Positions 23,622 to 45,017 of a DNA stretch of 51,853 nucleotides are shown in pieces. Position 1 is the first letter of the stretch, and every line of letters begins with the position of its first letter. The notes beneath the pieces are model-generated. The model was given only the letters and a program-made list of their open reading frames with translations, searched no databases and was not told where the DNA came from. The DNA comes from a virus. Position numbers and translations under genes: made by a program. The stretch is taken from IMG/VR virus record IMGVR_UViG_3300044998_000080; one strand, 5' to 3'.

Positions 23622-23631
23622 CACGCTCACC

Positions 23632-24866: not shown

Positions 24867-24879
24867 TGATTTCGCTCGC

Positions 24880-25252: not shown

Positions 25253-25258
25253 GAGCGG

Positions 25259-25489: not shown

Positions 25490-25508
25490 TTTGTTCGTTC
25501 CTTTCAGG

Positions 25509-25688: not shown

Positions 25689-25722
25689 GAGAGAAAGATA
25701 ACAGAACGATTCAAGGTGTCAA
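25689..25722 (-). promoter_or_regulatory. Class A promoter copy (no upstream hairpin)
   Basis: TTGACA 25722-25717, 16 nt, TATCTT 25700-25695, TCTCTC, then ATG 25688. Confidence 0.55.
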
Positions 25723-25776
25723 CACCTAATCGAACGAAAATCGACCGACGCGGCGCGTTGCGGTAGGGTCGCGCGT

Positions 25777-27276
25777 ATGCCCCCGGTTTCCCTGGATCAA
25801 GTTGATCTCTTGCGGCTCTCGAGCGAGCGCATGAGGCGATCGTTTGCGCTTTTCGTTCGGCGCGCCTGGCAATACGTCGATCCCGCGCCGATCGTGTGGA
25901 ATTGGCACCTAGACGCGTTGTGTACGTGCCTTCAAGCGGTGAGCGACGGGCGCATTCGAGAGTTGCTGATCAACATTCCGCCCGGTCACGCGAAGAGCTT
26001 GATCGTGTCGGTGCTTTGGCCCGCGTGGGTTTGGACCCGCGACCCTCGTTGGTCTTCGATCTTCGGCTCGTATGAACTCGGGCTCGTGACGCGTGACGCG
26101 GTGAGAACGCGCACGCTCGTTGAAAGTGAATGGTACATTCGACACTTTCGCTCGAGCGAAGAGGGCGCGGTTACCTGGGAGTTCGCCGACGATCAGAACT
26201 TGAAAAAGTTCTACAAGAACACGCTCGGCGGCGCGCGCACCGGAACAAGCGTCGGCTCGGGTACGGGCTACCGCGCGAACGCTCTCGTCGTAGACGACCC
26301 GATCTCGGCCGACGACTCATACTCGGAAGTTGAACGCGTGAAGGCGAACCGTTGGTTTTTCGAAACCATGTCTTCGCGCTTCAACGATCAGGCGACCGCG
26401 ATCCGCGTCGTGATCATGCAACGGTTGCATGAAGAGGATCTCTCGGGCGAGATCCTTCGGCGCGGCGGCTTTCAACACTTGAACCTTCCGAGCGAGTTCA
26501 ACCCGCTCGAGCGCTCGATCGTGCGCGCGCATGACGGCTCGGTGATCTGGCAAGACCCGCGCACGCAAGCGGGCGAACTTCTCTTTCCCGCGAAGTTCTC
26601 TCGAGCGGTTCTCGCGCAAGCGCGAAAAGACCTCGGCCCTTACGGGTACGCGGCACAACACGATCAGAAACCGACGCCCGCCGAGGGCGGCTTGCTGAAA
26701 CGCGCTTGGTTCACCCGTCGCTATTTGCGGCCCGGTGAGGTCGCGCGCGAAGGGTTCGAATGCGTCACGCTCCCGACACGCTTCGACATGATCGCGATCG
26801 TGACCGACGCCGCGTTCAAGAAAACGGAAACGAGCGATCGTGTCGCGATCGGTGTCGTCGGTCGCAAGGGGCCGAAGCTCTATTTGCTCGCGATGCGTTG
26901 GGATCGCATGAGCTTCACCGAGACCCTTCAAGCGATCCGCGATTTGCGCGCGGTCTGGAAACCGATCGAGATCGCGATCGAAGACAAGGCGAACGGCTCG
27001 GCGATTATCGAACTCTTGAAGCAAGAGCTACCGGGCGTGATTCCGATCGAGCCCGACGGCGGGAAAGAAGCGCGCATCATGGCGGCGACCTCGAGCCTCG
27101 AGGCGGGCGATCTCTATCTCCCGCTTTCTGAACCGTGGGTCGACCCGTTGATCGAAGAGGCGGCCGCATTCCCTCGAGGTCGACACGACGACGGGATCGA
27201 TATGCTCGCCTACGCGATCAACCGCTACCTCACGCGCTCGAACCTGGCGCGCCTCGAAGCGCTTGCGTCAGGCTAA
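25777..27276 (+). CDS. terL: Terminase large subunit
   Basis: 499 aa. FVRRAWQYVDP...WNWHLDALC...LLINIPPGHAKS (Walker A-like), VVDDPIS, and a C-terminal nuclease region. Confidence 0.85.
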   Translation: MPPVSLDQVDLLRLSSERMRRSFALFVRRAWQYVDPAPIVWNWHLDALCTCLQAVSDGRIRELLINIPPGHAKSLIVSVLWPAWVWTRDPRWSSIFGSYELGLVTRDAVRTRTLVESEWYIRHFRSSEEGAVTWEFADDQNLKKFYKNTLGGARTGTSVGSGTGYRANALVVDDPISADDSYSEVERVKANRWFFETMSSRFNDQATAIRVVIMQRLHEEDLSGEILRRGGFQHLNLPSEFNPLERSIVRAHDGSVIWQDPRTQAGELLFPAKFSRAVLAQARKDLGPYGYAAQHDQKPTPAEGGLLKRAWFTRRYLRPGEVAREGFECVTLPTRFDMIAIVTDAAFKKTETSDRVAIGVVGRKGPKLYLLAMRWDRMSFTETLQAIRDLRAVWKPIEIAIEDKANGSAIIELLKQELPGVIPIEPDGGKEARIMAATSSLEAGDLYLPLSEPWVDPLIEEAAAFPRGRHDDGIDMLAYAINRYLTRSNLARLEALASG

Positions 27277-27477
27277 ACCCTCGAGAGCACCGACGCGACG
27301 CCGCACGCGCTCGGCGCGAGAGCTTGCGCCAGGGTGCCGCTACGAGATACCCTCGAGCGCGGACCCACTAGCAGGGCGGCCGGGGCGTAACCCGCGACAC
27401 GCGTGCGGGGCTAGAAATCGCGAGGGCATGGCATGGTTGGGCGCAAGCCTCGAGTGCCGCGTGTTCTACCGAGCGCG

Positions 27478-27503
27478 CCCGCTTCGGTGGGTTTCCTCTT
27501 TTT
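27478..27503 (+). terminator. Weak intrinsic-terminator-like hairpin in the TerL-portal spacer
   Basis: CCCGC-TTCG-GTGGG followed by TTTCCTCTTTTT. Confidence 0.35.
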
Positions 27504-27534
27504 CGCTCGCGTGCGTGCGTGGTAGCTTCGGCTC

Positions 27535-29337
27535 ATGGCTCGCAAGTCAAGCAAAAACGATCGTGCTCGAGGCGATTCGCTCGCACGTCAAGACGGGTGG
27601 AACAACGTTCTCACGGCGTTGGGCTCGAAGACTCGTGACAAGCGCGAGTCACACATTCCCGTTCCCGAGCCGCTCTCGTATGCCGACGCGCTCTCGATCT
27701 ATCGAGCGAGCGACACGGCCGCCCGAATCGTCGACGTGCCCGCCGAGGAAATGTTGCGGCAAGGGTTCGAGATCAAGATTCCCGAGGGCCACGAAGAGAG
27801 CGAAGCGATCGTTTCTGCTCTCGACGATCTCGAGGTCGATTCGAAGTTGCTCGATCTCGCGAAGAAGACCCGCGCGTTCGGCGGCGCGGTTGCGCTCATG
27901 GGCGCACAAGACGGCGCAACGGATCTCTCGAAGCCGCTCAACGAGAACGCCATTCGCTCGATCGATTTTCTCACGGTCTTCGATCCTTCCGAGGTCTCGG
28001 TTCTCGAGTTCGTCGGCGCGCCTGGCGATCGGAATTATGGCGAGCCCGCCATGTATTCGATCCACCCGAAGGTGTTGAGCGTCGCGCCGAAAGCGCTCGG
28101 GCTCGAGCGCGTTCACGCTTCGCGTGTTCTTCACTTCCGAGGCCCGTCGATCTCGCGCTTGCAAGAGCAGGCGAACCGAGGGTTCGGTGACTCGGTGTTC
28201 GATCTCGTGTGGAAGGTCGTTCGCAACTTCGACACGGCGCACGAGAACGCGCACGCGCTCGTTGAAGACTTCGCGCAAGCGGTCTTCAAGATCAAAGGTC
28301 TCGCCGAAGCGATCGCGGGTGATCGCGCCGACGTGGTGAAGAAGCGCCTCGAGATCATGGATCTCTCGCGCTCGGTCTTGCGCGGGATCGCTCTCGACGG
28401 TGAGAGCGAAGATTTCGAGCGCAAGCCGACGCCGATCAGCGGTCTTGCCGATCTTCTCGATCGCTTCGCGCAACGTCTCGCGGCCGCAACGCGAATCCCG
28501 GTGACCGTGCTCATGGGCCAAAGCCCGGCCGGGTTGAACGCCACGGGCGCGAGCGACATTCGCATTTTCTACGACTTCATTGCGAGCCAGCAAAACGCGA
28601 TCTTGAAAAAGCCGCTCGAGCGTTTCGTTCGCTTGCTCATGCTCTCGAAGAAGGGCCCGACGAAGGGAATCGAGGCCGATAATTGGTGCGTCGAATTCCG
28701 GCCGTTGTGGCAACCGAGCGAGCAAGAGCAAGCCCAAACGCGTCAGACGATCGCGCAAGCCGATCAGGTCTACCTGACGAACGGTGTCGTCTCGGCCGAC
28801 GAGGTGCGAAAGGCGCGGTTCGGCGGCGACAAGTTCTCGGTCGACACCTCGATCGACGACGACAACGAGACCGAGAACGAAGCGAGCGACCTCGCCGACG
28901 AAGAGGGTGTGACTCGCGAGGTCGACGCCGAGGGCAACCCGATCCAAGTCAAGCCCGGTGAGACCGCGCCCGAGGGCTCGAGCGGCGCACCCGGCGCGCC
29001 TGCGATGGGCGGCGCACCCGGCGCACCCTCGAGCGGCGGCGCGCCCAAGGTGCAAGATCAGGCGATGAATGGTGCGCAAGTCACCTCGTTGATCGAGGTC
29101 GTGCGCGCGTACCACGCCGAAGAGATCCCGCGTGAGAGCGCGCTTGCGATCGTTCGGATCGCGTTCCGCCTGACCGATCAAGAGGCGAGCGACCTGATCG
29201 GGCCCGAGAACTTTCAGCCGAAGGAACCGCCCGCGCCCGTGATCGCGCCTGGGATCGGCGGCAAGCCCGGCGCGCCCGAGCAACCGAAGCAACCCTCAAC
29301 CCCGCGACCCGCGCCACCGAGCGCGAAGGAAACCTGA
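27535..29337 (+). CDS. Portal protein (DUF1073 family)
   Basis: 600 aa. N-terminal LARQDGWNNVLTALGSKTRD. C-terminal GAQVTSLIEVVRAYHAEEI after a P/G/A-rich stretch. Confidence 0.8.
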   Translation: MARKSSKNDRARGDSLARQDGWNNVLTALGSKTRDKRESHIPVPEPLSYADALSIYRASDTAARIVDVPAEEMLRQGFEIKIPEGHEESEAIVSALDDLEVDSKLLDLAKKTRAFGGAVALMGAQDGATDLSKPLNENAIRSIDFLTVFDPSEVSVLEFVGAPGDRNYGEPAMYSIHPKVLSVAPKALGLERVHASRVLHFRGPSISRLQEQANRGFGDSVFDLVWKVVRNFDTAHENAHALVEDFAQAVFKIKGLAEAIAGDRADVVKKRLEIMDLSRSVLRGIALDGESEDFERKPTPISGLADLLDRFAQRLAAATRIPVTVLMGQSPAGLNATGASDIRIFYDFIASQQNAILKKPLERFVRLLMLSKKGPTKGIEADNWCVEFRPLWQPSEQEQAQTRQTIAQADQVYLTNGVVSADEVRKARFGGDKFSVDTSIDDDNETENEASDLADEEGVTREVDAEGNPIQVKPGETAPEGSSGAPGAPAMGGAPGAPSSGGAPKVQDQAMNGAQVTSLIEVVRAYHAEEIPRESALAIVRIAFRLTDQEASDLIGPENFQPKEPPAPVIAPGIGGKPGAPEQPKQPSTPRPAPPSAKET

Positions 29338-29340
29338 TCC

Positions 29341-29631
29341 ATGAACCCCAAAATCGACGCGTTGATCGACGCTCTCGCCGCTTTCGCGGCCGCGCAAAAC
29401 CCCGCGATCACCGAGACCGAAGCGCTCACGATCGCGGCCGTTCGTCTCGTGAAACGCTACTCGGCCGCCCGAAGCGTGAACGAATGCCGCACGCTCGAGC
29501 CCGTGATCGCGCGGTTGACCTCGCGTTACGCGAAGCTCTCGAACGTCGAAGCGAACGCGCGCGAAACGATCCTCACCAACAACCAAGCCGCGATCGACGC
29601 GGCGATCTCTTCGGCGAACGTCGCCGAGTAA
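29341..29631 (+). CDS. Hypothetical protein
   Basis: 96-aa ORF starting 4 nt after the portal stop. Confidence 0.55.
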   Translation: MNPKIDALIDALAAFAAAQNPAITETEALTIAAVRLVKRYSAARSVNECRTLEPVIARLTSRYAKLSNVEANARETILTNNQAAIDAAISSANVAE

Positions 29632-29643
29632 GGGACGCAAGTC

Positions 29644-30054
29644 ATGGCAAACGTGGTTTACACCGAGTTTCTCAACTCGCTTCTCGATCTGAACCCCTCG
29701 ATCGACTTCGACACCGACACGATCAAGGTCGCAATGGTGACCTCGGCTTACACGCCGAGCGCGGCTCACCAATTCTTCTCGAGCGTGACCGGCGTTGTCG
29801 GCACACCTCAAACGCTCACGACGCCGACGGTCACGGCGGGCGTGTTCGATGCGGCCGACGTGACGTTCACGGCCGTTGCGGCGGGTTCGACCGTCGTTGG
29901 TCTCGTGCTCTACAAAGACACGGGCGTTGCCGCGACTTCGCCCCTGATCGCTTTCATCGATTCCGTTGCGTCGGGGCTCCCGGTCGCGACGAACGGCGGT
30001 AACATCGTGATCGCGTGGGATAACGGCGCGAACAAGATCTTGAAGGTCGGGTGA
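29644..30054 (+). CDS. Conserved phage protein of unknown function
   Basis: 136 aa. ...DTIKVAMVTSAYTPSAAHQFF...GLVLYKDTGVAATSPLIAFID resembles a recurrent phage family. SD is AAGGGA. Confidence 0.6.
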   Translation: MANVVYTEFLNSLLDLNPSIDFDTDTIKVAMVTSAYTPSAAHQFFSSVTGVVGTPQTLTTPTVTAGVFDAADVTFTAVAAGSTVVGLVLYKDTGVAATSPLIAFIDSVASGLPVATNGGNIVIAWDNGANKILKVG

Positions 30055-30058
30055 TCAC

Positions 30059-30307
30059 ATGGCCGCTCCCTACTGGCTTTTCGTCGAATCCATGAACGCC
30101 GAGGTCGGCCCCATCGCGCCCGAGTTCGGCTCGGTCGAAGCGGCGGCCCTCGTTGCGGCCGCCCGTTCCGACAACATTCGCGCGGTCTCGGGCGCGAGCG
30201 ATTTCGTTTCTCGCTGGCGTTTGCGCCCGGTCGTCGGTCTTCTCGACGAGACCGAAGCGGCCGCCTGGGAAGCTCTCGCCTCGATCAACGCGTTCGCCAC
30301 GTTCTAA
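30059..30307 (+). CDS. Hypothetical protein
   Basis: 82-aa ORF in the operon. Confidence 0.5.
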   Translation: MAAPYWLFVESMNAEVGPIAPEFGSVEAAALVAAARSDNIRAVSGASDFVSRWRLRPVVGLLDETEAAAWEALASINAFATF

Positions 30308-30319
30308 GGAACCGACGCC

Positions 30320-30511
30320 ATGCCGAAAACGAAACACTTGCCGATCCTCGATTCGGTGACCTCGAACACGATCGAAGTTGCGATCGTTCGAGGTCGCGTG
30401 CGAATTCAGTTCTCGATCACGCACGGCGTCGAACTCACACCCGTTGCGGCTCGAGCGCTGGCGAAGCGCTTGCGCGAACTCGCCGACACTCTCACAACCC
30501 CGGTGATCTGA
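30320..30511 (+). CDS. Hypothetical protein
   Basis: 63-aa ORF in the operon. Confidence 0.45.
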   Translation: MPKTKHLPILDSVTSNTIEVAIVRGRVRIQFSITHGVELTPVAARALAKRLRELADTLTTPVI

Positions 30512-30512
30512 C

Positions 30513-31301
30513 ATGGCGATCTCGACTCTCGACGGATTGATCGCGGCCTCGAAGCAAGTTCGACCGTTCTACAAGGTGAGCGCAACGAGCAAGGCGGCCG
30601 GTTCGTTTCACTCGCTTTGGACCCTGGCCGGTTTGCCCGGCGCGGGTTCGGCTCCCGGTACGGCGGCGGGCGCGGCGTGCAATAACACGACCGTCGGCGC
30701 GTTGCCGTGGACCTCACCGGACGGCGCAAACCTGGCTTACCTGGCGGCGCTCGAGCTTGCGGGCGCGACGATCGGCAACTTCATTCTCTACGATCGTCTT
30801 GTCCACACGTCGACGCTCTCGGGCACGGTCACGACTGCGCAAACCGTGAACTCGGCCGCTCTCACCCGCTACACGACGGGCGAAGACGTTGAGGCGTGGC
30901 TCGAGTTCTACGCGGCGACGGGCTCAACGGCAACGACCGCAACCGTGAGCTACACGAACGAAGCGGGAACGGCGGGGCGCACGGGTTCGGCGGCGATCGT
31001 CGCAACCACGGTGATCGGTCAAATGATCCCGATCACGTTGCAAGCTGGCGACAAGGGTGTTCGCTCGGTGCAATCGGTCACGCTCGCGGCGTCGACCCTC
31101 ACGGCCGGAAACTTCGGCGTGACGCTCATGAAGCGGCTTCAAAACGCGCCCATGATGATCGCGAACGTCGGCCAAACCTTCGACTTCGGCGCAACCGGGT
31201 TGCCGCAAGTCGTCGCGGGTGCGTGCCTCGCATTCGCGGTGTTGTGCTCGGCGACGAACACGGGCATCGTGACGGGAGCGGTCAAGACCGCCGAGGGCTG
31301 A
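30513..31301 (+). CDS. Hypothetical structural-type protein
   Basis: 262 aa, rich in Ala/Thr/Gly. ATG lies 1 nt after the upstream stop. Confidence 0.55.
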   Translation: MAISTLDGLIAASKQVRPFYKVSATSKAAGSFHSLWTLAGLPGAGSAPGTAAGAACNNTTVGALPWTSPDGANLAYLAALELAGATIGNFILYDRLVHTSTLSGTVTTAQTVNSAALTRYTTGEDVEAWLEFYAATGSTATTATVSYTNEAGTAGRTGSAAIVATTVIGQMIPITLQAGDKGVRSVQSVTLAASTLTAGNFGVTLMKRLQNAPMMIANVGQTFDFGATGLPQVVAGACLAFAVLCSATNTGIVTGAVKTAEG

Positions 31302-31304
31302 TCC

Positions 31305-32522
31305 TTGGGTATCCCGTTTCGCAATCCGAACGCGGGTCGACTCACCCGGCGCTTTGTTGCGCGCTCGGGCGTCGATCTGCTTACGGGTCGTGTCGACGGT
31401 GGATCAGCACAAGCGGCCGAGAACGTTTTTCGTGACGGTATTTTCGGAACGGTCGCGAGCAACGTAACCGTTTCGCCGAATGGTCTCGCGATCGCGGTGA
31501 CGCTCGGTGCGCCTGGCGTGTCAGCGACCGCGACCGTTTCACCGAACGGGCTTGCGATCCCGATCGCCTTCGGTTCGCCGACGGTGCAACCGGGCTCGGT
31601 GAACGTCTCGCCGAACGGTCTCGCAATCGCGGTGACGCTCGGCGCGCCCTCGGTGCAACCGGGTTCGGTGAACGTCTCGCCGAATGGTCTCGCGATCCCG
31701 GTGAGCTTCGGTTCGCCTTCGGTCACGCAACCGATCGTGATCTCGCCGAACGGGCTTGCGATCCCGCTCGCGTTCGGCGCGCCCTCGGTGCAACCGGGCT
31801 CGGTGAGCATCGCACCGAACGGCGTTGCGATCGCGGTGACGCTCGGCGCGCCCTCGGTGCAACCGGGCTCGGTGAACGTCTCGCCGAACGGTGTTGCGAT
31901 CCCGCTCGCGTTCGGCGCGCCCTCGGTGCAACCGGGCTCGGTGAACATCGCGCCGAACGGCGTGCTCATTCCGCGCACGCTCGGCACGCCAACGATCACG
32001 GCGACCGCTTCGATCTCACCGAACGGCGTTGCGATCTCGGTGAGCTTCGGTTCGCCGACGGTGCAACCGGGCTCGGTGAGCATCGCGCCGAACGGCGTTG
32101 CGATCCCGGTGAGCTTCGGTTCGCCGACGGTTGGCAACAACACGATCGCGCCGAGCAACGTCAGTGTGAACGGGCTCGCTATTCCGTTCAACTTCGGCCG
32201 CCCGTCGATCACGCCCGGCTCGGTGAACGTCTCGCCGAATGGGCTTTCGATCTCGGTCGCGTTCGGGTCACCCTCGGTCACCTCGATCGCTACGGTCTCG
32301 CCGAGCGGGTTCAAGATCCCGGTCACGTTCGGCGCGCCTGCTCTCGTCTACAACCAAAACGTTTCACCGAACGGCGTCTTGATTCCTCTCACGTTCGGGT
32401 TGCTCGTGATCGCTGATCGCTCGAATGAGCGGGTCGTGTATCGTGGCCCGCCGTTGCGGTTTCCGTCAGGCTCGAGCCGAGGTGCGCTCGGGTTCACTCC
32501 TAAGCGGGGCAAATGGACATGA
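31305..32522 (+). CDS. Tandem-repeat protein (~14 x 21-23 aa SPNG-AI-x-G-P-VQPGSV units)
   Basis: 405-aa ORF. The start (TTG 31305) is uncertain. The repeats are read directly. Confidence 0.6.
   Translation: MGIPFRNPNAGRLTRRFVARSGVDLLTGRVDGGSAQAAENVFRDGIFGTVASNVTVSPNGLAIAVTLGAPGVSATATVSPNGLAIPIAFGSPTVQPGSVNVSPNGLAIAVTLGAPSVQPGSVNVSPNGLAIPVSFGSPSVTQPIVISPNGLAIPLAFGAPSVQPGSVSIAPNGVAIAVTLGAPSVQPGSVNVSPNGVAIPLAFGAPSVQPGSVNIAPNGVLIPRTLGTPTITATASISPNGVAISVSFGSPTVQPGSVSIAPNGVAIPVSFGSPTVGNNTIAPSNVSVNGLAIPFNFGRPSITPGSVNVSPNGLSISVAFGSPSVTSIATVSPSGFKIPVTFGAPALVYNQNVSPNGVLIPLTFGLLVIADRSNERVVYRGPPLRFPSGSSRGALGFTPKRGKWT
31464..32403 (+). repeat. In-frame tandem repeat array, unit 63-69 bp, ~14 copies
   Basis: Several units are near-identical in DNA, e.g. 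gcgccctcggtgcaaccgggctcggtgaacgtctcgccgaacgg recurs. Confidence 0.85.
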
Positions 32523-33355
32523 TGAATCGGGGCGCATTCAAGGCACTCGTGCAAGCGGGCGGCGCACAACGCGCGCGCGTAGCGCTTCCGAAAATGGCGC
32601 TTCCGACGGCGCAAGCTCGGCGCTACTCGCGCGCGTTGCGCGGGAAACTTCTCGCCGACGCTCTCGCGCTCGTGCGCGCGAAGCTCGTGCCGAAGCTCGA
32701 GGCTCTCGCCGAGAACACCTCGAAGATCGCAACGAGCGTTCGCACCGACGCCGACGAGATCGGGAACACTCTCGACGAGATTCAAACCGAGTTTCTTTCG
32801 AAATGGTCGCGTCGACGAATGACCTCGCTCGTGCGCCCGGTCGCCGAAGAGATCGAGCGCTTTCACGCGACGCAACTCAACCGCTCGTTGCGCGCGGCCG
32901 TCGGTGTTGACGTGGTTGGGTCTGAACCCTGGCTCGAGAAATCGATCGACGAGTTCACGGCCGAGAACGTCGGCTTGATCAAGTCGATCCCGACGCGGTT
33001 CTTCGACGACCTCGAGACGAACTTGAAGCGTGAACTCGCCGACGGTGCCCGCTGGGAAGAACTCGCGGGAATCGTAGAAGAGCGCTACGGCGTCGCTCAA
33101 TCACGCGCGGAATTGATCGCGCGCGATCAGGCGGGAAAGTTCTTCGGCGATCTCAACCGAGTTCGTCAGGGCGACCTCGGGATCGAGCGCTTCACATGGC
33201 GCACGATGCACGACAACCGAGTTCGTGAAGAGCACGAGGCGCGAGACGGCGAAGCGTTCGCTTGGAACGATCCGCCCGACGGTGAGACACCGGGCGAGCC
33301 CGTGTTGTGCCGCTGCTACGCCGAGCCCGACCTTGCGGGCTTGCTCGAAGACTAG
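32513..33355 (+). CDS. Head morphogenesis protein (Mu F / SPP1 gp7 family)
   Basis: C-terminal FTWRTMHDNRVREEHEARDGEAFAWNDPPDGETPGEPVLCRCYAEP. Confidence 0.8.
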   Translation: MDMMNRGAFKALVQAGGAQRARVALPKMALPTAQARRYSRALRGKLLADALALVRAKLVPKLEALAENTSKIATSVRTDADEIGNTLDEIQTEFLSKWSRRRMTSLVRPVAEEIERFHATQLNRSLRAAVGVDVVGSEPWLEKSIDEFTAENVGLIKSIPTRFFDDLETNLKRELADGARWEELAGIVEERYGVAQSRAELIARDQAGKFFGDLNRVRQGDLGIERFTWRTMHDNRVREEHEARDGEAFAWNDPPDGETPGEPVLCRCYAEPDLAGLLED

Positions 33356-33627
33356 TCTCGACGAAAGAACACGAGCGCGAACGCGTGAGAGAGGATCGGC
33401 GCGGGCGGGTTCTTCGGGTCGGCCGAAAGCCGATCGACCTCATACCCGAGCGCGATCCGAAGCTCACGCGTCGCGTTGTCGAGAGCGGCTTGTTCGTGCG
33501 GCTCGAGCTTGAAGTGTGCGCGGATCTTCTCGCACGCCTGGGAAATCGCCTGAAACGCGAAGACCTTCTCACGCGCCCGATCTGAGAGAACCTCGAGCGC
33601 TTCTCGGTACGTGAACGGGAGCTTCAT
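33352..33627 (-). CDS. Hypothetical protein
   Basis: ATG 33627 in an ATGA overlap (MKLPFTYREALEVLSD...). Its stop shares CTAG with the MuF-like stop. Confidence 0.5.
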   Translation of the reverse strand: MKLPFTYREALEVLSDRAREKVFAFQAISQACEKIRAHFKLEPHEQAALDNATRELRIALGYEVDRLSADPKNPPAPILSHAFALVFFRRD

Positions 33628-33872
33628 TCGATCGCCTTCCTGATTGCGTTGATTGCCGCGTGAGGATCTTCGAAACCGTAGAACTCGGCGCGCGCCGTTC
33701 CCTTGCGAGCAACGATCACGTAAGGCCCGCTCATGCCCTGGCGCGGCTCGCTCGAAAGCTCGAGCTTCGGCCCGCGCTTTCCCGACCAATCCCGCTCGCT
33801 CAACACGTGGATCACCGCGTCGGTACGTCGACGCCAGCGACCGAACACGAACACTTCGTCATGCTCGCTCAT
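33624..33872 (-). CDS. Hypothetical protein
   Basis: ATG 33872 in an ATGA overlap (MSEHDEVFVFGRWRRR...). Confidence 0.5.
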   Translation of the reverse strand: MSEHDEVFVFGRWRRRTDAVIHVLSERDWSGKRGPKLELSSEPRQGMSGPYVIVARKGTARAEFYGFEDPHAAINAIRKAIE

Positions 33873-34324
33873 GCGCGCACCTTGACCCATTCGACAACCG
33901 CGTTCAAGTCGGCCGACTCGATCCGATCCCATTTGTTCGGCCCGACCTTGTGCGCGGCATGGAATCCGCCGAAACCGTTGAGGCCGATCTTGAACGCGGC
34001 GGCCGCATTCTCGGGCGACGACTTGCGAAGGTTCGTGATCGCTTCGACCGACGCCTGATATTCGCGCTCGTAGAGACCGCGATCGAAAGCGCGCGCACAC
34101 GCGATCTGCTCTTCGTGTGCCCGCTCGGTCTCGCGACGAATCTTCGCGGCGTTGAACTTCTCACCCGTGCGACCGCTCAACGCGCGGGCGGCGCACACAC
34201 ACCCGAAATAGACGATCTCGCCGTCGACCTCGAGGGCGGCCGTCGACTTGAGCCCGGTCTTGCCGCACAAGTCGCACGCCGAAACTTCGTCAGTCCAACC
34301 GAGAAACGTGATCGCGTTGTTCAT
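33869..34324 (-). CDS. Hypothetical Cys-cluster protein (cassette-proximal, leaderless ATG)
   Basis: 151 aa. MNNAITFLGW...CDLCGK...GCVC. ATG lies 6 nt after the -10. Confidence 0.6.
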   Translation of the reverse strand: MNNAITFLGWTDEVSACDLCGKTGLKSTAALEVDGEIVYFGCVCAARALSGRTGEKFNAAKIRRETERAHEEQIACARAFDRGLYEREYQASVEAITNLRKSSPENAAAAFKIGLNGFGGFHAAHKVGPNKWDRIESADLNAVVEWVKVRA

Positions 34325-34399
34325 GAGAGAAAGATAACAGAATGATTCGAGGTGTCAACACGAAAAGTGAAGGGCCCGGTCGATTTCTTGATCGGGCCC
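34325..34399 (-). promoter_or_regulatory. Terminator-promoter cassette, class A copy
   Basis: Hairpin 34372-34399. TTGACA 34358-34353, 16 nt, TATCTT 34336-34331, TCTCTC, then ATG 34324. Confidence 0.6.
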
Positions 34400-34412
34400 T
34401 GGTTTCGGTCGC

Positions 34413-34625
34413 TTACGCGCCGATCCCGGCGTCTCGCAAGTCACCTCGAGTGACCCAAATCAGCGAACCGCAAATGTCGGCTTGCGCCCGACAATTCACT
34501 TCGCCGATCGAGACGATCGTGAAGCGGTGACCCGCGCGGAAGAAACAACCGATCGGCGAGGTGTAGTCGCGCGCGATCGTGAAGGTGGAACCGACAACGA
34601 GAGAGGAAGTGTTGTTGTTGTTCAT
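34413..34625 (-). CDS. Hypothetical protein (cassette-proximal, leaderless ATG)
   Basis: 70 aa. MNNNNTSSLVVG... A single-gene unit flanked by two cassettes. Confidence 0.55.
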   Translation of the reverse strand: MNNNNTSSLVVGSTFTIARDYTSPIGCFFRAGHRFTIVSIGEVNCRAQADICGSLIWVTRGDLRDAGIGA

Positions 34626-34698
34626 GAGAGAAAGATAACAGAACGCTTCGAGTTGTCAACACGAAATCGAAAGGGCCCGGTCGATTTCGATCGGGCCC
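34626..34698 (-). promoter_or_regulatory. Terminator-promoter cassette, class A copy
   Basis: Hairpin 34673-34698. TTGACA 34659-34654, 16 nt, TATCTT 34637-34632, TCTCTC, then ATG 34625. Confidence 0.6.
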
Positions 34699-34711
34699 TG
34701 GTTTCGCGCGT

Positions 34712-35014
34712 TTAGGCCCAACGAGTGAGCTTCAAACGGTCACCAACGACGATCACCGCGAACCCCGTTGCGAGCGCGAACCGATTGCGGTTGCGGTTGA
34801 AACCGCCCGACACGCACGACCAATTGAAGAGGTGATTACCGCCACCCGACGCGACGAACATGCGCCCGTCATTGTTGACGGGAACGCTCGCGCGGGTCAC
34901 CTCTTCGTTGAGGCACGCGGGATCGTACCCGTTGAGGTCGACTCGGCCGAGCAAGCCGAGCCGCTCGAGTTCGTTGCGAAGCGTCGTGATCTCTTCAGTC
35001 TTGAGAAAGTTCAT
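34712..35014 (-). CDS. Hypothetical protein
   Basis: 100 aa. SD GAAAGG upstream of ATG 35014. Confidence 0.55.
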   Translation of the reverse strand: MNFLKTEEITTLRNELERLGLLGRVDLNGYDPACLNEEVTRASVPVNNDGRMFVASGGGNHLFNWSCVSGGFNRNRNRFALATGFAVIVVGDRLKLTRWA

Positions 35015-35032
35015 TGTGTGCGCCTTTCGTTT

Positions 35033-35224
35033 TCAGCCGAGGGTGTAGTGAGCGACTTGTTGATCGTGCGGAAGAGAGTTGAGGTGCGCGGCAAGCTCGA
35101 GCGCTTGCGCGTGCGTGAGGTCGGTTTTGAAGAAGCGGCCGCCAACGACCGCGAAGGTGTGATCCGGGCCCGACGAGATTTTCGAAAGACCGTTGAGAGC
35201 AGCGGTGAAGAGCGCGTTGTTCAT
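35033..35224 (-). CDS. Hypothetical protein (cassette-proximal, leaderless ATG)
   Basis: 63 aa. MNNALFTAALNG... Confidence 0.55.
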   Translation of the reverse strand: MNNALFTAALNGLSKISSGPDHTFAVVGGRFFKTDLTHAQALELAAHLNSLPHDQQVAHYTLG

Positions 35225-35290
35225 GAGAGAAAGATAACAGAACGCTTCGAGATGTCAACACGAAATCGAAAGGGCCCGGTCGATTTCTCG
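35225..35290 (-). promoter_or_regulatory. Class A cassette copy with a truncated hairpin
   Basis: TTGACA 35258-35253, 16 nt, TATCTT 35236-35231. Only the left hairpin arm (gggcccggtcgatttc) is present. Confidence 0.55.
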
Positions 35291-35351
35291 GTTTACCGTT
35301 AGGTTTCGCACACTTGCGCGCGCGGTCGAAAAGCTCGATCCTTCGATCATC

Positions 35352-37112: not shown

Positions 37113-38027
37113 ATGTTCATGCACCTCGACGCCGTTCAAACGGCGTTCTTCTCACGGCAACTCGAAGAGATCGACACTCAACTCTACGAGGTCAAAATGG
37201 CGGACCTTGAGGTTCGTCAACTCGTCGACGTGAAGCCGATCAACCCCGGCGCGGAAAGCCACACCTACCGACAATTCGACAAGCGCGGCGTCGCCAAGAT
37301 CATGGCGAACTACGCGAGCGGCTCGCCCCGCGTCGACGTGGACGGGAAGGAATACACGGCGACGCTCAAGAGCGTTCGTGATTCCTTCGGCTACTCGATT
37401 CAGGAGATCCGCAACGCTTCGTTCGCGGGCCTTCCTCTCGACGCCATGAAGGCAATGGCGGCTCGTCGCGCGATCGACGAGAAGCTCAACGCGATCGGCC
37501 TCTCGGGTGATTCCGAGTTCGGCTTGCTCGGTCTCTTCAACCAGACCAACGCGCAAACCTACACCGTTCCCGCCGACGGCACCGGCTCGAGCGCGTTGTG
37601 GGCGAACAAGACGAGCGACCTGATCCTTCGCGACATGTTCGGGATCGTCGATCAGATCCCGACCGTGACGAAGGAAGTCGAGAAGCCGAAGCGGCTACTC
37701 ATGCCCTACTCGCGGTTCCGCCTGATCAGCTCGAAGCGCATGGGTTCCGGTGACGGCACCCTGACCGTGCTCACGTTCTTCAAGACGCAACGCCCCGATA
37801 TCGAAGTTCGCGGCGCGCTGCTTCTCGACACGGCGGGCGCGGGCGGCACGGCTCGCATGGTCGCCTACGACCCGAGCCCCGTGAACGTTCAATGGGCGGT
37901 CGCGGTTCCGTTCGAGTCGTTCCCCCCGCAACTTCAGGGCATGGAATACGTGATCGAGTGTCACGCGCGCGCGGGCGGCGTGTTCATGCGCTACCCGCTC
38001 ACGATGGCTTACGGCGACGGGATCTAA
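37113..38027 (+). CDS. Major capsid protein (DUF2184 / HK97-fold family)
   Basis: 304 aa. N-terminal FFSRQLEEIDTQLYEV...INPGAESHTYRQFD. Module DUF1073-DUF2213-DUF2184. Strong SD. Confidence 0.8.
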   Translation: MFMHLDAVQTAFFSRQLEEIDTQLYEVKMADLEVRQLVDVKPINPGAESHTYRQFDKRGVAKIMANYASGSPRVDVDGKEYTATLKSVRDSFGYSIQEIRNASFAGLPLDAMKAMAARRAIDEKLNAIGLSGDSEFGLLGLFNQTNAQTYTVPADGTGSSALWANKTSDLILRDMFGIVDQIPTVTKEVEKPKRLLMPYSRFRLISSKRMGSGDGTLTVLTFFKTQRPDIEVRGALLLDTAGAGGTARMVAYDPSPVNVQWAVAVPFESFPPQLQGMEYVIECHARAGGVFMRYPLTMAYGDGI

Positions 38028-38039
38028 CCTCGCCAGGGT

Positions 38040-38080
38040 GAAGGGGCCGCGCACGTCTAGAGCGTGCGCGGTTCCCCTTC
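38040..38080 (+). terminator. Long hairpin after the capsid gene (attenuator/stabiliser)
   Basis: GAAGGGGCCGCGCACG-tctagag-CGTGCGCGG(tt)CCCCTTC. No clear U-tract. Confidence 0.5.
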
Positions 38081-38144
38081 GAGATTCGAAATCGCTCGAG
38101 TCTCGAAGGGGCGCAAGAGCCCACCAACCCCGAAAGGATTTCAC

Positions 38145-38468
38145 ATGCAAGAGAGCGTTTCGATTCGCAACAACACCGTGAGCGTCCACATGATCGGCCC
38201 GATCGAGGTCGGCGGCGAGAGCTACACCCTCCCGCCCGGCGTGCCCGTGCGCGTGCCGCTCGCGTTCCTCGAGCGCTTCGACGGCTCGGCCGTGCTCGCG
38301 CACAAGTTCAAGAACGGCGATCTCGAGTTCATCACCAACGAGACCGACGAGAAGAAGGCCGTCGAAGAGGCGAAGAACCTCGCCGAGATCATCGCGGCGA
38401 CCGGCGCGAAGGTCGACGGCGGCGGCGCGCCCGAGAGCGCGCCCGAGACCAACACCGAGCCGAAGTGA
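38145..38468 (+). CDS. Hypothetical head-associated protein
   Basis: ATG 38145 is preceded by GAAAGGA. Translation: MQESVSIRNNTVSVHMIG... The track ORF start at 38064 lies inside the hairpin. Confidence 0.55.
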   Translation: MQESVSIRNNTVSVHMIGPIEVGGESYTLPPGVPVRVPLAFLERFDGSAVLAHKFKNGDLEFITNETDEKKAVEEAKNLAEIIAATGAKVDGGGAPESAPETNTEPK

Positions 38469-38483
38469 TTCGAGGGATCGACC

Positions 38484-38864
38484 GTGGCGCTTTGGACCAA
38501 AGACGACGTTCGGAATCGCGCGCCTGAAATGAGCGTCGCGAACGGCGTTCCTGACGCCACGGTCGATCTCTACATTTCGATCGCAGAAAAGCAGGTCGAC
38601 GATCGCATTTTCGGTGACCTCACGATCGACGCGGGTTCGTACCTGACCGCTCACTTGCTCAAGACCGACGGTTACGGCGCGGCGGGGCAAGGCGCGGGCG
38701 GCAACGCGGCGGGCCCGGTGACCGGGATCACCGTCGGCAAGGTGTCGGTGCAATACGCGAGCGCCTCGAGCCCGGCCGCGTCGGCTGAACTCGCACGGTC
38801 ACGCTACGGCGTCGCATTCTCGAGACTGATCCGCCTGGCGGGGCCAACCCCGATCGTGATTTGA
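38484..38864 (+). CDS. DUF4054-like head-tail connector protein
   Basis: 126 aa, GTG start. ...ISIAEKQVDDRIFG...GSYLTAHLL. Confidence 0.55.
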   Translation: MALWTKDDVRNRAPEMSVANGVPDATVDLYISIAEKQVDDRIFGDLTIDAGSYLTAHLLKTDGYGAAGQGAGGNAAGPVTGITVGKVSVQYASASSPAASAELARSRYGVAFSRLIRLAGPTPIVI

Positions 38865-38870
38865 GGCCCC

Positions 38871-39380
38871 ATGAAAGGGCGCGTCACGATCAAAAAGAAC
38901 TCGAAGGGCCGAGCGGCCCTCGAACGTGCGCTCAAGCGCATTGATTCCGATCGCCCAATCGTGAAGGTCGGGCTTCTCGCGGGCTCGAGCGCGAAGCGTG
39001 AAGACGGGCTCTCGAATCCCGAACTCGGCGTGATTCACGAGTTCGGCACGTCGCGCATTCCCGCGCGCCCGTTTCTTCGGCCCGCGATTCGAAAGCACGC
39101 CGACGAATACACACGCGCGCTCGAGGGCGTCTTGAAGCGCGCTCTCAACGGCGAAGACTACGAGCGCGGGCTCAAGTTGATCGGCCAAAAAGCATCGGCC
39201 GACGTGAAGAACTTCGTCACGCGCGGGCCCGCGATCCCGCCTCCCAATGCCCCCGCGACCCTGGCTCGCAAAGAGGCGAAGCGGCGACCGGGCTCGAAGG
39301 GTGCCGTTCGCACGCTCGTTGACACCGGGCGCATGGTCGGTTCGATCTCCTACGAGGTTCAGAAAGGATCGAAAAAATGA
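38871..39380 (+). CDS. HK97 gp10-like head-tail joining protein
   Basis: LGVIHEFGTSRIPARPFLRPAI. Confidence 0.65.
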   Translation: MKGRVTIKKNSKGRAALERALKRIDSDRPIVKVGLLAGSSAKREDGLSNPELGVIHEFGTSRIPARPFLRPAIRKHADEYTRALEGVLKRALNGEDYERGLKLIGQKASADVKNFVTRGPAIPPPNAPATLARKEAKRRPGSKGAVRTLVDTGRMVGSISYEVQKGSKK

Positions 39381-39745
39381 GTCTCTTCGATCTCTCGGGT
39401 GCCGTTGCACTCGCGTTCACGCACACGATCACGGTGACGCGCTTCGCGACCGATTCGTTCGCGAGCAACGGCAAGGCAAACGCGCGCTCGGTCTCGAGCA
39501 CGTTCACGACCGGCGCGAGCGTGCAACCCATCGGGCGCAAGCTCGATCGCGAAGACCGACAAGGCTTCAACGAGCGAGACGACAACGTGACCGTGCTCAC
39601 CTCGGTCGAACTCTCGATTCGAGATCGTCTCACCGTGCCCGGTCTCGGTGACTTCGAGGTCGAAAGTGTCGAGATCTGGCACCCGGCCGGGGGATACTGC
39701 GAAGCGACCGCGCGCAAACTCGCCGCGCCGTTCGAGCCGAGGTGA
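39377..39745 (+). CDS. Hypothetical neck/tail completion protein
   Basis: 122 aa. ATGA overlap. Call is by position only. Confidence 0.5.
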   Translation: MSLFDLSGAVALAFTHTITVTRFATDSFASNGKANARSVSSTFTTGASVQPIGRKLDREDRQGFNERDDNVTVLTSVELSIRDRLTVPGLGDFEVESVEIWHPAGGYCEATARKLAAPFEPR

Positions 39746-39748
39746 CCT

Positions 39749-40282
39749 ATGGGGATCGCGAATTGGTCGACGATCGAAGACACGATTCAAGCTCAAATCG
39801 CGGCGGGCTCGGGCATCGCGGGCGCGTCGGTTCGTTGGGCGGATCAGTCGCGAGACTCGCCCGCGTCGGGCGATTCCGTTCGCCTGGCGATCACGAACGG
39901 CGCAACCGTCGGTCACGCCGAAGAGCACGAGATCAATAACCCGACGCCGAGCGCGGGAAATGAGATCTTGCTTCGCGAGCACGAGCACCTCGAGTTCGAC
40001 GTTGAAGTTCAGTTCTTCAGCATGACGCCGCACGGCAACTCGTCGGCCTGGGCTCGAGCGCGCACGACCTCGAGCTACCTTCAACGCGACGACGTGACCG
40101 AGAACCTTTTCGCGGCGGGGCTCGCGCTCGTGTCGGTCGACCGTGTGCAACGAGCACCCGCCGTGCTAGAAACTGAGATTCAGGATCGAGCGGTTTTCAC
40201 GGCTCGTTTCCGCACGCTTGACGGTAGCGAGCAAGCTACCACGTACATCGAAAGGGCCGAATGGATCGGCTCGTTGACCTGA
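39749..40282 (+). CDS. Hypothetical neck/tail terminator-type protein
   Basis: 177 aa, immediately upstream of the sheath gene. Call is by position only. Confidence 0.5.
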   Translation: MGIANWSTIEDTIQAQIAAGSGIAGASVRWADQSRDSPASGDSVRLAITNGATVGHAEEHEINNPTPSAGNEILLREHEHLEFDVEVQFFSMTPHGNSSAWARARTTSSYLQRDDVTENLFAAGLALVSVDRVQRAPAVLETEIQDRAVFTARFRTLDGSEQATTYIERAEWIGSLT

Positions 40283-40295
40283 AAGGATCGAACAA

Positions 40296-41615
40296 ATGGC
40301 TTCTCTCTCTGACATTGTGACCGTGAACGTGAGCACTCTCACGACGGCCGTGAAGCAACCGGGTTTCGGAACCCCGTTGATCGCAGATTACAACACCCGC
40401 TTCGCCGAGCGCGTGCGCTTCTACACGTCGCTTCAAGGGCTGATCGACGACGGGTTCACCGTCAACGACGGTGCATACCGCACGGCGGCCGCGATCTTCG
40501 CGCAATCGCCCCAGGTCACCAAGATCGCGATCGGTCGTCGCGCTCTCGCGCCCGATCTTCAGATCGACCTGACGCCGACGGCGGTGAACTCGCGCACCTA
40601 CAAGGTCGATTTGATCGGCCCGGCCGGTCTCACCGCGACCGCTTCGTTCACGAGCGATTCGACCGCGACCGTTGCCGAGATCACGGCGGGTCTCACCTCG
40701 GCGATCAACACGGCGGCCGTCGGGATCACCGCGACCGATCAGACGACCTTCGTTCGTCTCAAGGCGGCGTCGGCGGGTCTGCACTTCTGCGCTTCCGCGC
40801 AAGACCTCTCGCTGATCACCGCACAACAAACCCACGTCGATCCTGGCATCGCGACCGACCTCGCCGCGATCGCTCTCGAGTCGGCCGACTGGTACGGCCT
40901 GACGCTCTCGACGGCGGGCAAGGCCGAGATCGTCGCGGCGGCCGCGTGGGTCGAGTCGAACAAGAAGTTCGGCGCGTTCACCTCGCAAGACGGCGACATT
41001 CTCGGTTCGGGCTCGAGCGACGTTGCTTCGACCGTGAAGACCGCGAACAACTTCCGCTCGATCGTGTTCTTCTCGAACAAGGGTCTCGCGCAATCGGCGG
41101 CGGCCGCGCTTCTCGGCGCGACCTTCCCGTTCGATCCCGGCTCGGTGACCTTCAAGTTTCGCAAGCTCGCGGGCGTCACTTCCGACGCTCTCACGGCGAC
41201 GCAACTCACGAACCTTCGCAACAAGAACGCGATGTTCTTCACCGACTACGGCGGGATCTCGATCACGGCCGAGGGCAAGACGGCGGCCGGTGAGTTCGCC
41301 GACGTGATCCGCGACCGCGATTGGTTCGAGTCGCGGCTTCAAGCGCGCGTGTTCAACGTGCTCGTGAACAACGCGAAGGTGCCGTTCACCGATCGCGGGA
41401 TCGCGGCGATCGAGGCCGAGCTTCGCGCGCAACTGACCGAGGGCATTCAATCGGGGTTCCTCACCGACAACCCCGCGCCCGTCGTCTCGGTTCCGCTCGC
41501 TTCGGCCGTCGCGTCGATCGACAAGGCGGCGCGCCTGCTCAAGCCGATTTCGTTCACCGCGAAGGTCGCGGGAGCGATCCACGCCATCACGATCACCGGA
41601 ACGATCACGGTCTAA
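40296..41615 (+). CDS. Tail sheath protein (DUF3383-like)
   Basis: 439 aa. N-terminal LSDIVTVNVS...QPGFGTPLI. Followed by the tube gene. SD is GAAAGGA. Confidence 0.65.
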   Translation: MASLSDIVTVNVSTLTTAVKQPGFGTPLIADYNTRFAERVRFYTSLQGLIDDGFTVNDGAYRTAAAIFAQSPQVTKIAIGRRALAPDLQIDLTPTAVNSRTYKVDLIGPAGLTATASFTSDSTATVAEITAGLTSAINTAAVGITATDQTTFVRLKAASAGLHFCASAQDLSLITAQQTHVDPGIATDLAAIALESADWYGLTLSTAGKAEIVAAAAWVESNKKFGAFTSQDGDILGSGSSDVASTVKTANNFRSIVFFSNKGLAQSAAAALLGATFPFDPGSVTFKFRKLAGVTSDALTATQLTNLRNKNAMFFTDYGGISITAEGKTAAGEFADVIRDRDWFESRLQARVFNVLVNNAKVPFTDRGIAAIEAELRAQLTEGIQSGFLTDNPAPVVSVPLASAVASIDKAARLLKPISFTAKVAGAIHAITITGTITV

Positions 41616-41648
41616 CCGATCGCTCACAACCCGAAAGGAAACTGAAAC

Positions 41649-42071
41649 ATGGCAACCAAGACCTACAACGCGAAGAAGGTTCTCATTTCGTTCGCGGGCA
41701 AGACTCTCACGGGCGTTCTCGACGGTTCATTCGTGAAGGTCTCGCGCAACAACGATTCCTTCATGCTCGCGATCGGTTCCGACGGCGAAGCGGCTCGAGC
41801 CGCGAACGCCGACAAGTCGGGCACGGTGACGGTGACGCTCATGCAAACGTCGCCGAGCAACGACGATCTCTCGAACCTCATGAGCACCGACGAACTCACG
41901 AACACGGGCACGGGCGCGCTCTTCGTGAAAGACGCGAGCGGCCGAACGCTCGTGTCGGCCGTCGACGCCTGGATCCGCAAGCCCGCCGACGTGGAGTTCG
42001 CTCGCGAGATCACCGGGCGTGAATGGGTCTTCGAGACCGGCAACCTCGAGATCTTCAACGCTGGCAACTGA
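41649..42071 (+). CDS. Tail tube protein (DUF3277-like)
   Basis: 140 aa. YNAKKVLISFAGKTLTG...VTVTLMQTSPSN. Strong GAAAGGAAACTGAAAC initiation region. Confidence 0.65.
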   Translation: MATKTYNAKKVLISFAGKTLTGVLDGSFVKVSRNNDSFMLAIGSDGEAARAANADKSGTVTVTLMQTSPSNDDLSNLMSTDELTNTGTGALFVKDASGRTLVSAVDAWIRKPADVEFAREITGREWVFETGNLEIFNAGN

Positions 42072-42097
42072 CGCGAACTCGATCTTCGTGTAGAACC

Positions 42098-42125
42098 GAG
42101 GGCGGGGCCGAAAGGCCCCGCCCTC
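42098..42125 (+). terminator. Intrinsic terminator after the tube gene
   Basis: Perfect 12-bp stem GAGGGCGGGGCC-GAAA-GGCCCCGCCCTC, then ACTCTTTGG. Confidence 0.65.
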
Positions 42126-42144
42126 ACTCTTTGGAGATCACAAC

Positions 42145-42576
42145 ATGATTCAGACGAAAGAAATCGAACTCGAGACCTCGAAGGGCCGCGCCGTTTTCGA
42201 GGTGCCGCAACTCGACGGCGTGCGCGCGGTGAAGCTCTTCGTTCGACTCACCAACAAGGCGGGGCCCGCGATCGCAATGCTCAAGTCGGGCGGCGCGGCG
42301 GCGGCCCTCGGCGCATTCCTCGAGCACCTCGAGCCCGACGAATACGAGCGGATTCAAAACGAGTTGCTCGCTCGCGTGTCGTGCCGCTGGCCCGAGGGTG
42401 ACGACACCGACTCGAACGCCGTGCGGAACCTGGGAACGATCTTCACCGGGCACCCGTTCGAGCTTGGTCGGCTCGTGCTCTTCGCTCTCGAGGCGAACTA
42501 TGGTTCTTTCTTCGAGCGCCTTCGCGACGCCGTGACGAAGGCTCTCGCCGAAACGGCGACGGTGAAGAAGAGCTAA
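42145..42576 (+). CDS. Tail assembly chaperone
   Basis: 143 aa. Sits between the tube and tape-measure genes. Acidic C-terminus. Confidence 0.6.
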   Translation: MIQTKEIELETSKGRAVFEVPQLDGVRAVKLFVRLTNKAGPAIAMLKSGGAAAALGAFLEHLEPDEYERIQNELLARVSCRWPEGDDTDSNAVRNLGTIFTGHPFELGRLVLFALEANYGSFFERLRDAVTKALAETATVKKS

Positions 42577-42620
42577 CGCTTGATCAGATCGACCCCTCGA
42601 TTTGTTGGCCGATCGAGCGG

Positions 42621-42770
42621 TTGATCCTCGAGCGCATCGCGACCCGCCGAGACCTCGAAACCTGCTATTCTTTCGACGACGTGATCGAAGAGAACAAAGC
42701 ACTCGACGCCTGGCATTGGGCGCAACGCGAACAAGAGCGCCGAGCGGCGTCGAAGAAGGGTAACCGATGA
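42621..42770 (+). CDS. Small ORF or -1 frameshift extension of the chaperone
   Basis: The frame is open from 42402 to 42770 and ends in an ATGA overlap with the tape-measure start. The only internal start is TTG 42621. Confidence 0.3.
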   Translation: MILERIATRRDLETCYSFDDVIEENKALDAWHWAQREQERRAASKKGNR

Positions 42771-44413: not shown

Positions 44414-44415
44414 TC

Positions 44416-45015: not shown

Positions 45016-45017
45016 TC

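Follow-up and report, generated by a model that had tools for sequence, protein, structure and literature searches.

The morons of Hendrix and colleagues are independent units of promoter, gene and terminator inserted in late operons; they usually occur as single units with unrelated signals and were described in temperate phages. Leaderless genes are found, among other bacteria, also in Actinobacteria, and leaderless phage mRNAs are known singly, such as the lambda cI message made from PRM. In Deinococcus-Thermus a -10 motif located 6-7 bp before the open reading frame marks leaderless genes (PMC12340547), leaderless translation is enhanced by CA repeats following the AUG and inhibited by a 5' UTR (PMC9031893), and a dRNA-seq map of early phiKZ infection detected no leaderless phage transcript (PMC8244752). 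The closest known system to the element presented here is the PeSL (promoter-early stem-loop) cassette of T4-like phages, which is repeated in their variable regions and for which promoter and terminator activity as well as mini-circles were shown by experiment (PMC2839356, PMC4122927). In the incomplete part of the literature that we covered, no homogenised, repeated leaderless cassette was found described.

In this study we followed up an element at 34325-34399 (minus strand) of a viral DNA of 51,853 nucleotides (IMG/VR record IMGVR_UViG_3300044998_000080), this whole stretch being called the window. The element had been proposed to be a terminator-promoter cassette, present in six copies, whose geometry predicts leaderless mRNAs. 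Our main reading, to which we give a probability of roughly 0.7, is that of a portable leaderless expression cassette shuffled by recombination. It would represent a PeSL-like shuffling element fused to leaderless expression.

The window covers an entire phage genome, of about 62% G+C. Its first 127 bp recur exactly at the other end (1-127 = 51727-51853), and since this duplication indicates circular assembly or terminal redundancy, the genome length comes to about 51.7 kb. The gene map was built from codon usage and functions of the blocks were taken from Pfam matches:

21-5818, plus strand: block of genes from the codon-usage map
6047-25688, minus strand: replication block, with family A DNA polymerase, helicase, PD-(D/E)XK nuclease and DUF5906 primase-like protein (Pfam)
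25777-33355, plus strand: packaging and head block, with large terminase (TerL), portal and Mu-F-like protein (Pfam)
33352-35224, minus strand: short block from the codon-usage map
from 35352, plus strand: structural block, with DUF2213, cement protein and sheath-like DUF3383 protein (Pfam)

A nucleotide search of cultured phages with 8 kb of the window gave no match, and the best match of the portal protein in any cultured phage is 33% identical. Relatives of TerL at 40-48% identity were found in MAGs of Terriglobia, Bryobacterales, Isosphaeraceae, Armatimonadota and Deltaproteobacteria; assigning a host from them was rejected, such identity being too distant. Related phage loci were recovered through TerL, and the one most used below, L004, encodes a TerL 82% identical to that of the window. 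L004, L005, L109 and L116 represent the same genotype (99.98-100% identity) and carry no population-level indel information. Several other features of the genome were recorded on the way. The gene at 31305-32522 (plus strand), placed between head genes, consists of some 13 units in tandem, each 66 or 69 nt long (22-23 aa), and similar repeat genes are present in L001-L004. A tRNA-Gln(ttg) at 11250-11322 (minus strand) was confirmed by Rfam, and an 88-nt tRNA-Ala(cgc) at 14564-14651 (minus strand) is an ARAGORN call alone, without Rfam confirmation. Very stable intergenic hairpins (-28 to -34 kcal/mol) at 42097-42140 and 38037-38080 (both plus strand) and at 4386-4429 look like terminators of structural operons.

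Copies of the cassette are located in two variable regions, which carry the following genes:

24167-25688, minus strand: cargo of variable region 1, genes A-E (gene map)
25688-25509, minus strand: gene A, 59 aa
25489-25259, minus strand: gene B, 76 aa, led by a Shine-Dalgarno (SD) sequence
25176-24880, minus strand: gene C, 98 aa, phrog_9437 (function unknown)
24792-24352, minus strand: gene D, 146 aa
24355-24167, minus strand: gene E, 62 aa, GTGA overlap
33352-35224, minus strand: cargo of variable region 2, opposite in orientation to the Mu-F-like and DUF2213 head genes on either side
35224-35033, minus strand: region 2 gene, 63 aa
35014-34712, minus strand: region 2 gene, 100 aa, SD-led
34625-34413, minus strand: region 2 gene, 70 aa
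34324-33869, minus strand: region 2 gene, 151 aa
33872-33624, minus strand: region 2 gene, 82 aa, overlapping the upstream gene
33627-33352, minus strand: region 2 gene, 91 aa, overlapping the upstream gene

None of the cargo proteins matched Pfam, and PHROGs gave the single family named above. Homologues of gene C, 41-56% identical, occur in phages of Agrobacterium, Rhodobacter, Rhizobium, Vibrio, Pseudomonas, Microcystis and Tenacibaculum, and gene C appears to be a widely travelled accessory gene.

A pattern search for the core TTGACA-N13-TGTTATCTTTCTCTCATG returned five exact matches, on the minus strand only (24790-24826, 25686-25722, 34322-34358, 34623-34659 and 35222-35258), with none in 100 shuffles; these five copies are identical as TTGACA-N13-TGTTATCTTTCTCTC-ATG. 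The looser pattern TTGACA-N16-TANNNT found the five exact copies and a variant at 25183-25210, with 0.02 matches expected by chance, and repeat detection in the window grouped the same six copies into one family (D4). The order of the core is the -35 box, a 16-nt spacer ending in TGT, TATCTT, TCTCTC and ATG; all elements and the 6-nt gap are as originally predicted, except that the TGT described as following the 16 nt lies inside them (13 + 3). The sixth copy reads TTGACA-N16-TATTAT-TCCCTC-ATG. Together with one hybrid site, the copies are:

24790-24875, minus strand: full cassette heading gene D; extended hairpin at about 24875-24829 (-29 kcal/mol, z -4.6), TTGACA 24826-24821, TATCTT 24804-24799, ATG 24792-24790
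25174-25252, minus strand: variant cassette heading gene C, 11/12 to consensus; 12-bp hairpin followed by UUUUCUU, TTGACA 25210-25205, TATTAT 25188-25183, TCCCTC, ATG 25176-25174
25686-25745, minus strand: head copy, promoter without hairpin, heading genes A and B and divergent from TerL (25777, plus strand); T-rich TCGATTTTCG upstream, TTGACA 25722-25717, ATG 25688-25686
34322-34407, minus strand: full cassette with hairpin, heading the 151-aa gene and the two overlapping genes downstream; TTGACA 34358-34353, TATCTT 34336-34331, ATG 34324-34322
34623-34708, minus strand: full cassette with hairpin, heading the 70-aa gene; TTGACA 34659-34654, TATCTT 34637-34632, ATG 34625-34623 (ATGAACAACAACAAC)
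35222-35290, minus strand: head copy with hairpin loop and 3' arm only, divergent from the DUF2213 gene (35352, plus strand); TTGACA 35258-35253, ATG 35224-35222
20738-20774, minus strand: hybrid promoter-like site with the -35 box and first 11 spacer bases (TTGACACTCTCACCCGA) as in the variant cassette

Each range listed for the copies by the original prediction was reproduced by reading of the sequence, and so was the recurrence of a piece of the variant cassette, the 17-nt TTGACACTCTCACCCGA, at 20758-20774, where the hybrid site continues differently, with a short leader that includes AAAGG ahead of the ATG at 20737. The count of six needs qualification: five promoter cores are near-identical and the sixth is a variant, while complete hairpin-promoter cassettes number four. 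The counterpart of the variant copy is the L004 cassette downstream of gene B. The truncated form of the copy at 35222-35290 is found also at L004:18956 and is for this reason old. A scan of IMG/VR for the exact cassette gave no match.

The six cassette sites agree with the sigma-70 consensus in 10-11 of 12 positions with a 16-nt spacer, and TG at -15/-14 is present in five of them. Only eight sites in the whole genome score at least 10/12, namely the six cassettes and a divergent pair near 23.5 kb. Outside 19-38 kb, in the other 33 kb, sigma-70-like matches are weak (9/12) and at chance level, and the consensus scan gave no sigma-70-like promoter above chance in 1-19000 and 38000-51853. These scores speak for the predicted promoters. 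The cassettes are probably early promoters read by the host polymerase, and the replication and structural genes would depend on something other than sigma-70-like promoters.

The divergent pair (23518-23491, minus strand, and 23592-23621, plus strand) lies in a low-GC intergenic region with short AT-rich repeats, 23419-23631. The plus-strand gene that follows (23632-24123) has no SD and its ATG stands 10 nt after the -10 box, which makes it nearly leaderless. AT-rich regions occupy the equivalent position in L001, L003 and L004, and 23419-23631 may be a control or origin region.

We regard it as very improbable that the element is a selfish or neutral repeat of MITE or REP type, or that its promoter serves a phage-encoded sigma factor or RNA polymerase instead of being a host sigma-70-type early promoter. 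The element is short, contains an internal inverted repeat and spreads within the genome, as such a repeat would, but every copy points the same way and is tied to the start codon of the downstream open reading frame, no terminal inverted repeats or target duplications are seen in the aligned copies, and no Rfam family matches the element. A phage-encoded factor is brought to mind by L003, where a putative sigma-like protein, recognised by sequence reading only, is encoded upstream of this locus's own repeated promoters; against it stand the match of 10-11/12 to the housekeeping consensus at canonical spacing and the absence of any such family among the 30 window proteins scanned.

All six cassette genes start with ATG, 6 nt after the -10 box, and as these six nucleotides are all pyrimidines, the A of ATG is the seventh base and the first purine available. 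By E. coli-type spacing rules, +1 should fall on this A. The lack of an SD, claimed for all proximal genes, was borne out in 6/6: pairing with the anti-SD amounts to +0.4 to +1.5 kcal/mol in the cassette genes, while the median of other genes is -5.25 kcal/mol and about 59% of them reach -5 kcal/mol or better. Genes further downstream behave as predicted, having SDs of GAAAGG type (25489, 35014) or ATGA/GTGA overlaps (33872, 33627, 24355). For the open reading frame at 35224 the ATG is the sole possible start codon, gene calls by JGI and Logan, made on independent contigs from this phage, agree on the products of 63, 70, 151, 59 and 98 aa, and alignments of gene C with its homologues in cultured phages begin at residues 1-5.

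Similarity between the copies extends, as noted before, into the first codons. The six genes open with MTDT, MTNA, MNAN, MNNA, MNNNN and MNNA, among which all five openings listed earlier are found, and AAC serves as codon 2 or 3 in five of six cassette genes compared with 7 of 69 others (p = 2.5e-4). The CA/A-rich opening AUG-A(A/C)C-AAC may favour promoter escape or the initiation of leaderless translation; alternatively, the first codons could be alike through common descent of the repeat rather than selection. Weaker mRNA structure at the 5' end of cassette genes was marginal only (p 0.015-0.26) and was given no weight.

In relatives L001, L003, L004 and L006 promoter sequences differ, but the geometry and the ATG-A(A/C)C-AAC opening are kept. 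L004 has six copies of TTGACA, 18 nt, TATCTA or TATAAC and 6 nt, which open with ATG-ACC-AAC or ATG-AAC-AAA and are accompanied by hairpins in three cases. L001 carries TTGACA-N16-TACTAT-N7-ATGAACAAC and a second site 8 nt before its ATG, L006 carries TTGACA-N17-TATAAA-N6-ATGAGCAAC, and L003 carries TTGACA-N17-TATATC-N6-ATGCACAAC, where the same promoter also precedes a gene with a leader. In the window and close relatives 14/14 ATGA[ACG]CAAC sites show the -35 and -10 geometry, compared with 0/30 in distant loci. Gene B, the SD-led second gene of its unit in the window, follows a cassette of its own in L004 and starts there with a leaderless ATG, so the same protein can be expressed either way. 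A scan with the hairpin-loop motif retrieved the L004 genotype again (L109, L116) and chance matches, nothing else.

Geometry, lack of SD, the single-start reading frame, independent gene calls and relatives together support leaderless mRNAs. It is less plausible, and we think it improbable, that the promoters are used but the mRNAs are not truly leaderless, either starting a few nucleotides upstream or being translated independently of SD from read-through transcripts. The distance between -10 and ATG does vary in relatives, from 6 nt in L003, L004 and L006 to 7-8 nt in L001, the host RNA polymerase may have its own start-site preference, and the hairpins may leak. Yet after six pyrimidines the A of ATG comes first among purines and stands at the canonical +1, an mRNA with just one or two nucleotides ahead of the AUG would still function as leaderless, and an SD-independent route for these genes alone would be odd in a genome in which SD use is common elsewhere.

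The upstream half of the cassette is the less certain one. Four copies have strong hairpins (-22 to -29 kcal/mol, z -3.3 to -4.6), which begin 10-20 nt downstream of a stop codon. Folding of the stretches upstream of the two remaining copies agreed with the earlier description of a promoter-only copy at 25689-25722 and a truncated hairpin at 35225-35290: 25723-25780 has no structure (z +0.86) and 35259-35318 holds the loop and 3' arm only. These two copies are the heads of both minus-strand blocks, facing TerL and DUF2213 divergently, and the distribution of hairpins makes functional sense because there is no upstream gene to terminate at divergent junctions. Across window and L004, the seven full copies have a 7-bp core stem in common. 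At one position of the stem C-G is replaced by U-A in L004, with U-G as intermediate, and on the transcribed strand several pairs are G-U; pairs were counted in a trimmed alignment, MAFFT having misaligned the 5' arms of hairpins across genomes. That G-U pairs fit the minus-strand RNA alone is no more than suggestive, as one inner A-C mismatch would be G-U on the plus strand. The cassette hairpins rank among the 25 most stable of about 26,000 windows, in a genome whose GC-rich coding regions fold equally strongly.

The predicted terminator was borne out in its strong GC-rich stems and in part in its U-rich tail, a clean U-tract (UUUUCUU) directly following the hairpin in 2/7 copies of the window and L004 (window 25211-25252 and L004:8462). 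Three window copies have interrupted tails of UUCGAUUUCG type, two L004 copies have poor GAAUUACG tails, and loops measure 10-12 nt unless inner pairs form. We hold with moderate confidence that the hairpin is a terminator or attenuator; this role is the weakest part of our interpretation and deserves lower confidence than the overall mechanism.

Alternatively, the promoters are real and the hairpin is mainly a regulator site, a stabiliser of the RNA 3' end or a processing site, with the T-rich stretch as an UP-like element, which we consider doubtful though worth attention. The U-tracts, weak in 5/7 copies, and the standard terminator scan, which reported none of the cassette hairpins, agree with such a role. 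So do the loop and 3' arm, whose sequence AGAAATCGACCG is shared by window and L004, truncated head copies included, and is conserved beyond the requirements of a terminator, and the interleaved inverted repeats, GAAATCGA of the loop being the reverse complement of TCGATTTC, which adjoins the -35 box on its upstream side. Head copies without a hairpin still have the T-rich TCGATTTTCG ahead of their -35 box, and this stretch may for that reason belong to the promoter. On the other side, hairpins are found only where a same-strand upstream gene ends and are absent at block heads, pairing is kept by compensatory change and transcribed-strand G-U pairs, and the two copies with UUUUCUU have a canonical stem before it. 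We therefore keep the terminator or attenuator as the preferred role.

Shuffling was analysed by blastn against L004, the one well-sampled close relative genotype. Core blocks of the two phages are 73-78% identical, and the core homology ends at window 25716 / L004 9470 and at window 35264 / L004 18960, which are in both cases the -35 box of the head cassette. The stretches separating these blocks have been replaced or permuted. Window 25170-25483 (gene B with the downstream cassette) matches L004 8420-8740, and window 24777-25189 (gene C with flanking cassettes) matches L004 9036-9453, so that the two segments stand in opposite order. Gene A, which adjoins TerL in the window, lies beyond the AT-rich control region in L004 and L001, behind a cassette promoter. 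In variable region 2 the window has three cassette units and L004 a single one, and window 33352-35263 shows no DNA similarity to L004 17139-18959 although both are set between aligned core blocks. The second variable block of L004 includes a gene at about 18220-17900 (minus strand) for a putative C5 DNA methyltransferase, read from its translation, of which no counterpart was seen in the corresponding block of the window.

Promoter cores of the window agree with one another at 91-100% identity and those of an L004 type at 97-100%, while positional counterparts are 64-67% identical in the core and 73% and 87% identical in their upstream flanks. Such homogeneity is the signature of concerted evolution through recombination among copies. 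Metagenome contigs L118 and L120 (ending at window 24809) and L119 (window 25805-24824) come from the same phage (99.9-100% identical) and all end inside cassette copies, which fits assembly breaks caused by a 70-nt repeat. The suggestion that copies might serve as recombination sites for exchanging cargo gains support from the L004 breakpoints at cassettes, the permuted order and the concerted cores; the search of relatives for the element with different cargo, recommended at the outset, found it in L004, whose cassettes flank replaced or permuted genes.

According to the mechanism that we favour, a GC-rich RNA hairpin would close the upstream unit and be followed by a T-rich stretch and a near-consensus promoter for the housekeeping sigma factor of the host. 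The discriminator, 6 nt of pyrimidines only, would leave no purine in the start window before the A of ATG. Transcripts would accordingly begin with AUG at their 5' end, carry neither leader nor SD, and enter translation through leaderless initiation. An internal AUG without SD should be a poor start site, and the first genes would be translated mainly from transcripts of their own promoters, even with leaky hairpins. The cassettes of the two variable regions would act as homology patches, where recombination shuffles, adds and removes gene units and keeps the copies in one genome alike.

A further-reaching interpretation, which we offer tentatively and consider rather unlikely, sees in the cassette a plug-and-play module, tolerant of recombination because it has no 5' UTR, insulated from read-through, and with AUG-A(A/C)C-AAC as a dedicated enhancer of leaderless initiation. 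Recombination anywhere in such a cassette, even in the shared first codons, would yield an expressible gene. If this were true, the cassettes would capture and exchange genes within the phage lineage, as has been proposed for PeSL mini-circles, and the host group would rely heavily on leaderless translation, possibly outside the phyla known for it. Regardless of this extension, the portable leaderless cassette would carry shuffling cassettes, so far T4-like, into an unrelated lineage of uncultured high-GC phages, which suggests that the strategy arose more than once, and would link them with leaderless translation in a unit of about 75 nt holding all expression signals. It suggests efficient translation of leaderless mRNA by the host. 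In practical terms, the cassettes predict transcription start sites and N-termini, which may aid annotation of start codons in this lineage, and are candidate portable promoter parts for high-GC bacteria.

Compared with known systems, the window cassette and PeSL share a repeated composite of upstream stop codon, A/T-rich stretch, strong sigma-70-like promoter and stem-loop with G-U pairs. Either composite is concentrated in variable regions, immediately ahead of small genes without a known function, and coincides with the sites at which relatives differ; for each, the proposed driver is recombination between copies. The A/T-rich stretch of PeSL type is represented upstream of the -35 box by TTTCGATTTCGTG or CTCTTTTCTTG, in a genome of 62% G+C. 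The activity of PeSL is known from experiments, and that of the window cassette is predicted from sequence. PeSL ends in an SD and start codon, whereas the window cassette has no SD and its ATG lies at the predicted +1. The stem-loop of PeSL is usually placed between or over the -35 and -10 boxes, while the window hairpin is wholly upstream of -35. The copy number is about fifty for PeSL and six in the window, and the carriers differ too, PeSL belonging to T4-like myoviruses and the window phage, of about 52 kb and 62% G+C, showing no T4-like homology in our searches.

Region 2 (33352-35263) is also moron-like, consisting of self-contained units set between conserved head genes in opposite orientation and differing from L004; morons, however, usually have unrelated signals, and the window units share one homogenised cassette. 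With leaderless genes of Deinococcus-Thermus the cassettes have in common a -10 box 6 nt before the ATG, lack of SD and a strong preference for AUG as start, but promoters of the former are mostly without a -35 box (PMC12340547), while the window cassettes have a perfect TTGACA. The CA-rich sequence after the AUG matches a reported enhancer of leaderless translation (PMC9031893). The arrangement in the window is a repeated, homogenised module instead of scattered individual genes, in a genome whose remaining genes use SD.
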